From: Nitrospirales bacterium
GTDB lineage: Bacteria > Nitrospirota > Nitrospiria > Nitrospirales > UBA8639
Direction: 5' to 3'
NCBI GenBank assembly: GCA_963555755.3
Contig: OY820905.2
Location: forward strand, 1,888,001 to 1,952,000
Length of the DNA: 64,000 nt
Part shown: positions 5,104-6,373 of the stretch, one piece after another
Numbering within the stretch: position 1 is the stretch's first letter
How the letters are laid out: the number at the start of each line of letters is the position of its first letter
The notes under the pieces: model-generated
Seen by the model: the letters and a program-made list of their open reading frames with translations, nothing else
The model's database searches: none
Told to the model about the DNA's origin: nothing
Program-made: the position numbers and the translations under genes

Positions 5104-5168
5104 GATTTCTCTCTATCTGGGTTTAAAATAAAGGGAATGTTCAAAAAAGCATGCCCTTGTATAATGCA

Positions 5169-5397
5169 AGGAAGGGTTGTAGGCCAACTCACCCGAGCTG
5201 CCTCTTGTCTGAAGAGGGCATAGCCAACGTAGGGAAAAGGCTGTACCCTCACGGTATTGTGAATCCTGGCATGATAGACCGTTTGCCCTATGGGAATCAG
5301 CCCGTGACTCAGCGCAGGTCGTCATGCCCTTTCTCTGATGAACCCGAACGGTTGCCTGGGACACCAAGCCCGTATCAACAAGGTTGGGAGACAGAGC
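5169..5397 (+). ncRNA. Predicted IS110 bridge RNA: 5' accessory structure, target-binding loop (~5268-5328), donor-binding loop (~5332-5396)
   Basis: Target-binding loop: stem ggcatgat/gtcatgcc plus gacc/ggtc encloses gtttgccct (5281-5289) and gactcag (5306-5312), matching target gcatgccCTgagtc. Donor-binding loop: stems ctctg/cagag and cccga/ttggg enclose acggttgc (5348-5355) and acaag (5378-5382), matching donor acggttgCTtgt. The 5' end is estimated from the -10 box. Confidence 0.85.
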
Positions 5398-5398
5398 G

Positions 5399-6373
5399 AT
5401 GAAATCAAAATCCTCAGAATTGTTTATCGGTATCGACATTTGTAAAGCTCGATTAGACGTGGCAGACAATGCCAATTCGCTTCCCTGGTCGGTAGCCAAC
5501 AACGACGCCGGCATCGCCGCGCTGGTGGAGCGGCTCCACGTCCTTCACCCCACTCTCATCGTGATGGAAGCCACAGGGGGGCTGGAAACGCTTCTGTATG
5601 CGGCCTTAACCACCGCCGGGTTGCCGGCGGTCGTCATGAATCCCCGTCAGGTGCGGGACTTTGCCAAGGCCCTGGGCACCCTGGCCAAAACCGATGCCCT
5701 GGACGCCCGAATCTTGGCTCGCTTCGGGGCGGCGATCCAACCGGCGGTCCGGCCCATGAAAGACGCCACCACCCAGGAATTGACGGCCTTGGTGACACGG
5801 CGACGGCAGTTGCTTGCCATGCAGACGGCGGAAAAAACCCGCTTCCAGCAAGCAGCCAAATGGATCCGCAAAGATATCAACGCCCATATCGCCTCCCTGG
5901 AAAAACGGCTCCACACAATCGAAGGTCATATTGCCGAGATTATTAAACAGACCCCCGGCTGGAAAGAGAAAGATTCGCTCCTTCGAAGTGTGCCGGGGGT
6001 GGGCAACGTTTTGTCAATGAATCTCCTCAGTAGCCTGACCGAACTCGGAACGCTCAACCGAAGAGAAATCGCCACGCTGGTGGGCGTTGCCCCCTTAAAC
6101 CGCGACAGCGGAAACGTGCGCGGCAACCGAAGGGTCTGGGGAGGCCGGGCCCAAGTCCGCGCCGCCCTCTACATGGCGGCCCTGTCCGCATCACGATTTA
6201 ATCCGGTCATCAAAACATTTTATCAACGCCTGATTGCACAAGGGAAAAAACCCAAAGTGGCCCTCACCGCCTGTATGCGAAAACTTCTGGTCATTCTGAA
6301 TACGATGGTCAAAACCCAAACAGCATGGAACCCAAATCAATATTCAACCCTTGACTTTAATCACGGTTGCTGA
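5399..6373 (+). CDS. IS110-family DEDD recombinase (transposase)
   Basis: RuvC-like DEDD residues in [15 protein letters not shown] and AKTDALDA; C-terminal SVPGVG, PLNRDSG (candidate catalytic Ser) and ACMRKLL; start at ATG 5399 after ggag. Confidence 0.97.
6351..6371 (+). promoter_or_regulatory. -35 half (TTGACT 6351-6356) of a sigma70 promoter completed by TATAAT (5160-5165) only in the circularised IS
   Basis: Joining right end and left end across one CT gives ttgact-ttaatcacggttgcttg-tataat, a 17-nt spacer. Confidence 0.85.

Follow-up and report, generated by a model that had tools for sequence, protein, structure and literature searches.

An intact IS621-type IS110 element of a Nitrospirales bacterium with a predicted bridge RNA, a dispersed host repeat as its target and a stop codon completed by the landing site

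Does the insertion found between argS and a gene for a family 9 glycosyltransferase (both minus strand) form a complete RNA-guided recombinase system, which site does its RNA address, and may it still move? We addressed these questions in a window of 64,000 nucleotides (the whole stretch of DNA analysed) from a Nitrospirales bacterium, together with the rest of its genome and related elements. The insertion is very probably an intact IS621-type IS110 element, whose predicted bridge RNA likely directs the recombinase to one site in a host repeat at a CT core. The features are collected in Table 1.

The original prediction placed the element between two CT dinucleotides and held its ends to be precisely resolvable, and both points were borne out by the other genomic copies. 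BLASTN of the 4.62-Mb genome found 11 full-length copies (96.5-100% identity) and two truncated ones, one without the last 29 bp (92%) and one without the first 861 bp. The left junction was GCATGCC-CT and the right junction CT-GAGTC, each in 12/12 copies that retain the end in question. All junctions thus lay at GCATGCC-CT-GAGTC within a dispersed repeat of about 146 bp, a sequence-specific target as in the IS110 family, and insertion occurred at the short core without a longer target duplication, likewise a feature of that family. Because the other copies independently share the same boundaries, the ends of the element are secure. Different boundaries or unrelated targets among the copies had been named as grounds for giving up the prediction; the comparison yielded the same ends and the same target.

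Excision of the element leaving one CT gives GCATGCCCTGAGTC. As claimed, this sequence is present intact at 40924-40937, on the minus strand, where the exact match extends over 45 nt. The site is not a special empty allele, however, as the 14-mer occurs in 72 exact empty copies in the genome and this is one of them. The absence of terminal inverted repeats was also confirmed: searched over 40 nt from each end, reverse-complement matches reached at most 8 nt, in a subterminal position (5172-5179 versus 6345-6352), and conservation of this match was not apparent in the close relatives aligned. The 18-nt inverted repeat around the element (5133-5150/6475-6492) is the host repeat's own. The non-coding left end, estimated earlier at about 240 nt, measured 243 bp including the core, and a non-coding right end was absent, which is the long-left/short-right layout of IS621. 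Assignment to the IS1111 group, which has a long RNA-bearing right end and subterminal inverted repeats of 7-17 bp, was rejected, as the RNA lies in the left end here and the right end is coding.

Table 1. Features of the element and its surroundings, in positions of the window
Feature	Positions	Strand	Basis or remark
IS110 element, 1,216 bp core to core	5156..6371	+	ends common to 11 full-length copies; 2 more truncated
Left CT core	5156..5157	+	same boundary in 12/12 copies with left end
Right CT core	6370..6371	+	same boundary in 12/12 copies with right end
Host dispersed repeat, left piece (inverted-repeat arm 5133-5150 and left target)	5133..5157	+	
Host dispersed repeat, right piece (rest of palindromic target module, hairpin body, inverted-repeat arm 6475-6492)	6372..6492	+	
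Unoccupied host repeat copy; target 14-mer at 40924-40937	40784..40953	-	
TATAAT, -10 half of predicted junction promoter; overlaps right-donor sequence	5160..5165	+	17-nt spacing
TTGACT, -35 half of predicted junction promoter, within coding sequence	6351..6356	+	
Non-coding left end, predicted bridge RNA	5172..5398	+	fold and consensus; start inferred from -10 box
Target-binding loop with closing stems	5268..5328	+	centroid and consensus structure
Left target guide GTTTGCCCT versus target GCATGCCCT	5281..5289	+	6 contiguous matches and position 1
Right target guide GACTCAG, complement of CTGAGTC	5306..5312	+	7/7
Target-loop handshake dinucleotide CG	5313..5314	+	position by analogy to PMC11208158, read from sequence
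Donor-binding loop with closing stems; covers likely ribosome-binding site	5333..5396	+	fold and consensus
Left donor guide ACGGTTGC, identical to bases 6363-6370 of the right end	5348..5355	+	8/8
Right donor guide, 9 nt discontiguously pairing 7 donor bases	5374..5382	+	ACAAG:CTTGT, 5/5
Donor-loop handshake GT	5383-5384	+	directly after right donor guide
Recombinase gene, 324 aa; D13, E57, D99, D102, S237	5399..6373	+	domains, family profile, PDB alignment
Stop codon TGA = core T and target GA	6371..6373	+	all 11 full-length copies
81-codon open frame continuing recombinase in circle; TGA overlaps ATG	5157..5402	+	

The gene behind the left end, which begins with the ATG at 5399, encodes the DEDD recombinase that had been proposed. 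The ORF at 5399-6370 matched PF01548 (N-terminal DEDD domain) and PF02371 (C-terminal domain) and scored 209 bits with NCBIfam NF033542, for which the cutoff is 140. Its sole PDB matches were ISCro4 (E 6e-37) and IS621 (E 5e-35). The catalytic residues D11, E60, D102, D105 and S241 of IS621 (PMC11208158) aligned to D13, E57, D99, D102 and S237 of the 324-aa protein, respectively. All five residues and an ORF without internal stop were retained in 11/11 full-length copies, in agreement with the view that the element is intact. The family is large, with 3,302 proteins at E<=1e-100 among 8,000 scored candidates. The closest named protein records came from Nitrospirota/Nitrospirales (81-90% identity), followed by a Nitrospinaceae bin at 76%, which is consistent with the earlier guess of a Nitrospira-like host. 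Protein matches at E<=1e-40 were found in 8/41 related genomes, this genome counted, and DNA matches to the element in 2/301 genomes of the phylum.

The predicted bridge RNA was assessed by structure and by its guides. In the predicted fold, the left end forms two successive units (5268-5328 and 5333-5396), each with a stem around an internal loop. Alignment of 33 left ends gave a two-loop consensus with compensatory changes at 17/27 pairs, and the guides stand in the canonical order, left before right. This IS110 guide order and the discontiguous nine-to-seven pairing of the right donor guide are described in PMC11208160. Folded alone, the left-end RNA was no better than shuffles (z -0.13), and Rfam returned no match to it at E<=1. 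Domains, guide matches, covariation and consensus fold all point to the IS621-type layout with a CT core and a bridge RNA that the original prediction had put forward. The left target guide GTTTGCCCT has a wobble at position 2 and a mismatch at position 3 to GCATGCCCT (6/9). Read by hand, the handshake bases allow a single Watson-Crick pair ahead of strand exchange, and two with an additional wobble once it has taken place; in IS621, one pair forms before and three form after (PMC13626964). A flipped guide assignment was considered for CATGCCCT (5323-5330), which is identical to 8 nt of the target, and was rejected: this segment forms the 3' side of the stem that closes the target loop, changes together with the 5' side, and is constant in relatives whose targets differ. 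Its identity to the target appears to be a coincidence.

To compare guides with natural flanks, 79 loci with a bridge-RNA hit were collected, 64 of which were usable; 8 had no recognisable right end, 5 had guide gaps and 2 had no ORF end. Once 3 duplicates and 9 further own copies had been removed, the comparison comprised 37 distinct guide pairs, drawn from this element and from related ones. At right-target positions 10-14 the flank agreed with its own guide in 76-92% of the pairs, compared with 37-46% after shuffling (0/2000 each); at left positions 3-7 it did so in 59-92% versus 37-63% (0-1/2000). These shuffle counts are not true probabilities, because the relatives are not independent samples. 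No covariation signal was found at left positions 1-2 in the 37 guide pairs. In the left-guide test, real pairs and shuffles were both scored in the better of two registers; a single fixed column gave no signal, since in most relatives the hairpin is preceded by an additional base. The natural covariation of guide and flank supports the predicted programmability of the element.

The target belongs to an intergenic host repeat of about 125-170 bp bounded by 18-nt inverted repeats, for which nhmmer, started from one seed, gave 313 hits, and 558 when iterated once. A blastn comparison of 103 nt of the repeat with E. coli genomes, made with regard to ERIC likeness and of low sensitivity, gave only matches at E=3. 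Within it, the target sits in a short imperfect palindrome, CTGAG-N4-6-CGAAGG, which had 199 genomic matches versus 7-8 in three shuffles. The left guide was mismatched at positions 2-3 in every occupied site, and a perfect 14-mer for the guide was absent from the genome. Double mismatches are poorly tolerated by IS621. The 11-mer TGCC-CT-GAGTC (positions 4-14) was found at 81 exact empty sites, 75 of them in the host repeat, and at 13 occupied ones. It is probably the working target, with the pairing shifted to the right arm. GCA at positions 1-3 was rejected as an extra determinant, as 72/81 empty sites carry it anyway.

The weak left match could be offset if target choice needed the DNA hairpin of the repeat besides the guide. 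The target does lie at the foot of the overrepresented palindrome, a similar palindrome stands on the right flank in 15/51 related loci (many of Dehalococcoidia), and a precedent has been reported for ISPpu10 (10.64898/2026.03.19.712850). However, the local hairpin is weak (-1.8 kcal/mol), 36/51 related loci have no similar right flank, and the observed insertions need no extra determinant because 75/81 exact 11-mers are in the host repeat anyway. We therefore regard a hairpin requirement as unlikely, and take the guide-specified 11-mer as the probable target. Landing in the host repeat is likely harmless; IS621, ISPpu9, ISPpu10 and ISRm19 are also known to insert into REP-type repeats (PMC1525189). 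The host repeat often bears one or two short palindromic modules. The CTGAG-N4-6-CGAAGG module is also the landing site of related IS110s from Dehalococcoidia and other bins (L026-L094 right flanks), whose guides track variants of it.

By analogy with IS621, the cycle would start with a rare excision that gives a 1,214-bp circle. The joined ends of the element would read TTGACT-17-TATAAT, a sequence match to a promoter, and the circle junction might thereby build a sigma-70 promoter for both bridge RNA and mRNA. A recombinase tetramer would then bring the two DNAs together, the repeat paired to the target loop and the junction to the donor loop; S237 would cut after the CT, and strands would be swapped at the CT core between the joined ends and the repeat site, resulting in insertion into another empty repeat. 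The handshake bases, with more pairing after exchange than before, would favour insertion.

Whether the element still completes this cycle was approached through its copies and through contigs of sequencing runs. Among the ten 1,216-bp copies compared, no two were identical and the differences ranged from 1 to 71 nt; seven differed mutually by 1-9 nt and three by 21-71 nt. The changes in full-length copies relative to the window copy were mostly synonymous. This pattern fits recent, repeated transposition of a functional gene. The element might nevertheless be dormant now, having spread in the past and no longer being excised, for example with a drifted guide or with too low an expression when integrated. 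Such dormancy would agree with the lack of any identical pair, with the 81 empty against 13 occupied 11-mer sites, and with the presence of one copy with a 6-nt deletion in a donor-loop stem and of two truncated copies. Nor did a circle junction appear in the Logan contigs from eight (X1, X2, X4, X6, X8, X9, X10 and X11) of 24 listed runs, but contigs drop rare forms. On the other side, seven copies stand only 1-9 nt apart with intact ORFs, and circles are expected to be rare, given that IS621 in vitro excises about 2,000-fold less efficiently than it inserts (PMC13626964). The same left guide also occurs in an element whose protein is 89% identical and whose target is similar, so the mismatch of the guide is old rather than a sign of recent decay. 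Dormancy is therefore possible, though we lean against it, and present activity of the element, called probable in the original prediction, is plausible.

A skip from 5155 to 6370 in run X9 was rejected as evidence of excision, as its short side has 20 letters and empty repeats elsewhere explain it. The RNA runs X8 and X10 cover the element, in contigs, which cannot show transcription. The right end had four metagenome matches, three of which could be translated; each of the four continued with GAG and never with the left end, and it had no match in viral contigs.

The recombinase ORF has no stop codon of its own. It passes through the -35 box and the left donor to the core, where the stop is completed by the target. 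Among 51 non-redundant loci, 8 had a target-completed stop and 38 a stop within the element, for which the -35 box mostly supplies the TGA; in the other 5 the ORF continues into the flank. GA also follows the element in 20 of the 38 that carry their own stop. Among the 69 best protein hits (65-98% identity), 63 stop at an LDFNHGC-like motif, 2 extend beyond it and 4 lack it. We infer from the position of this motif that the stops of those 63 proteins are target-completed as well, and the borrowed stop apparently occurs clade-wide. This is explained most simply by a one-base shift close to the end of the gene, which was tolerated since GA was already required by the guide; with GA directly behind the core, the clade likely lost its own stop at little cost.

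A more elaborate reading is that the RNA-specified target has taken over the stop, and that translation is thereby switched by integration and excision. In the chromosome the 324-aa form would be made, and in the circle translation would read through 81 codons over the bridge-RNA region to an ATGA overlap with the start codon; ribosomes might then melt the donor-loop stem over the ribosome-binding site, or a distinct 405-aa form might be made. The 63 of the top 69 protein hits that end exactly at the core-encoded residue would suit such a switch. In the element's own copies as well as in L022, L023, L100 and L025, no stop interrupts the frame as far as the start-codon region, whereas the other two frames have 2-6 stops, and an open 81-codon frame arose in 120/5000 shuffles. 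In addition, 6/10 stop-less elements had no stop in the frame versus 23% of 99 control frames, a comparison in which kin are counted as independent. However, staying open given an open ancestor was not significant under two null models (395 and 1394 of 5000), and the synonymous bias was no better than that of a control frame (19/62 versus 20/62). The frame closes after 30 codons in L036 (75% identity), the read-through of L025 runs in frame into the next ORF, and five relatives read into random flank. GA itself is explained by the target, given the 20 own-stop relatives that also precede it. A translational switch is thus improbable, and we keep to the one-base shift. If the read-through were regulatory after all, it would be a form of control of the IS110 cycle that we did not find described in the literature searched.

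No description of the missing stop was found in the accessible IS110 literature searched, including PMC11208160, PMC13626964, PMC11187229 with its preprint, and PMC12288879. ISCro4-type orthologues have been tested with C-terminal fusions (10.1101/2025.05.14.653916), which suggests by analogy that a C-terminal tail may be harmless. In five Chloroflexota IS110s (L061, L062, L069, L077 and L088), the ORF passes the core and continues 30-324 nt into the flank, and these elements have copy-specific C-termini. In L027, L028, L035, L037, L054, L086 and L096, mostly Nitrospira IS110 relatives, the right end is apparently longer, with 80-113 nt after the stop where it could be located.

Compared with IS621 of E. 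coli (PMC11208160, PMC11208158, PDB 8WT6), the element shares a DEDD and serine recombinase of similar length, the CT core, a long left end with a two-loop bridge RNA and the same guide order. The 9-to-7 discontiguous right donor pairing, the GU donor-loop handshake, the junction promoter (predicted here) and insertion in an intergenic repeat are also common to both. Unlike IS621, it has a different target and donor, a Nitrospirales-type host and a longer left end (243 bp). Its natural right guide has 7 nt, and only 6 matches are contiguous on the left, whereas the right guide of IS621 is shorter and was extended by design. Moreover, the coding sequence here spans the -35 box and the donor as far as the core, leaving no non-coding right end. 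ISCro4/IS622 (PDB 9T56; 10.1101/2025.05.14.653916), the best PDB hit, likewise has CT cores and the same loop architecture; it is active in human cells by experiment, whereas the present element is known from its sequence.

Like ISPpu9, ISPpu10 and ISRm19 (7/7, 7/7 and 4/4; PMC1525189), the element has all its copies in one dispersed intergenic repeat family. ISPpu9 differs in using an AG core and making no junction promoter (PMC12288879). In contrast to REP-targeting IS110s, the target here is a palindromic module nested in a longer element bounded by inverted repeats. IS1239 of Streptococcus pyogenes (PMC13630536) also has a transposase gene without its own stop that ends in flanking DNA; its C-termini vary with the flanks, whereas here the guide fixes the flank and hence a constant C-terminus. 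In all the IS110-group features that can be checked in this way the element agrees with the group, and it would be expected to work like IS621, repeat targeting included. Apart from the stop codon borrowed from the landing site, it is an ordinary IS110 member, and its clade may already carry an ISfinder name or stand in the supplements of the cited papers.

The element contributes a bridge recombinase that is distant from IS621 and ISCro4, well resolved and mapped in all its parts, with a natural 7-nt right guide. It is a candidate for an orthologue screen, such as the one in which 72 IS110 orthologues were examined previously (10.1101/2025.05.14.653916), and a further case of an IS110 landing in a dispersed repeat. 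For such use, caution is needed, as a cloned circle junction or a reprogrammed target would change the C-terminus unless a stop is supplied.

Some copies and neighbouring loci showed individual features. In the L001 copy (G000 C1:343015-344224), whose ORF is intact, the deletion removes 6 nt from the donor loop's 5' stem, and this copy is possibly unable to move by itself. In the most diverged copy (92%), L020 (G000 C1:2149029-2150215), a different sequence follows in place of the last 29 bp, and the ORFs beyond the broken end presumably resemble another transposase. The left-truncated copy L021 (G000 C1:1572761-1573115) adjoins an ORF that starts with what we take to be an RHS-type core motif. 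A left-end fragment of 84 bp from a related IS110 (77% identical) lies at G000 C1:2215825-2215907, where no recombinase gene was found. Weak matches to an IS110 profile (E 2e-7 to 2e-4) occurred at G000 C1:193141, 563321, 2045186 and 3744640 and at three more places; three of the seven share one score, and they possibly represent a more distant multicopy IS110/IS1111 element. Within the window, positions 8334-14693 on the minus strand hold a gene cluster that presumably encodes multi-heme cytochromes c and cytochrome bd-like proteins, as in nitrite-oxidising Nitrospira.
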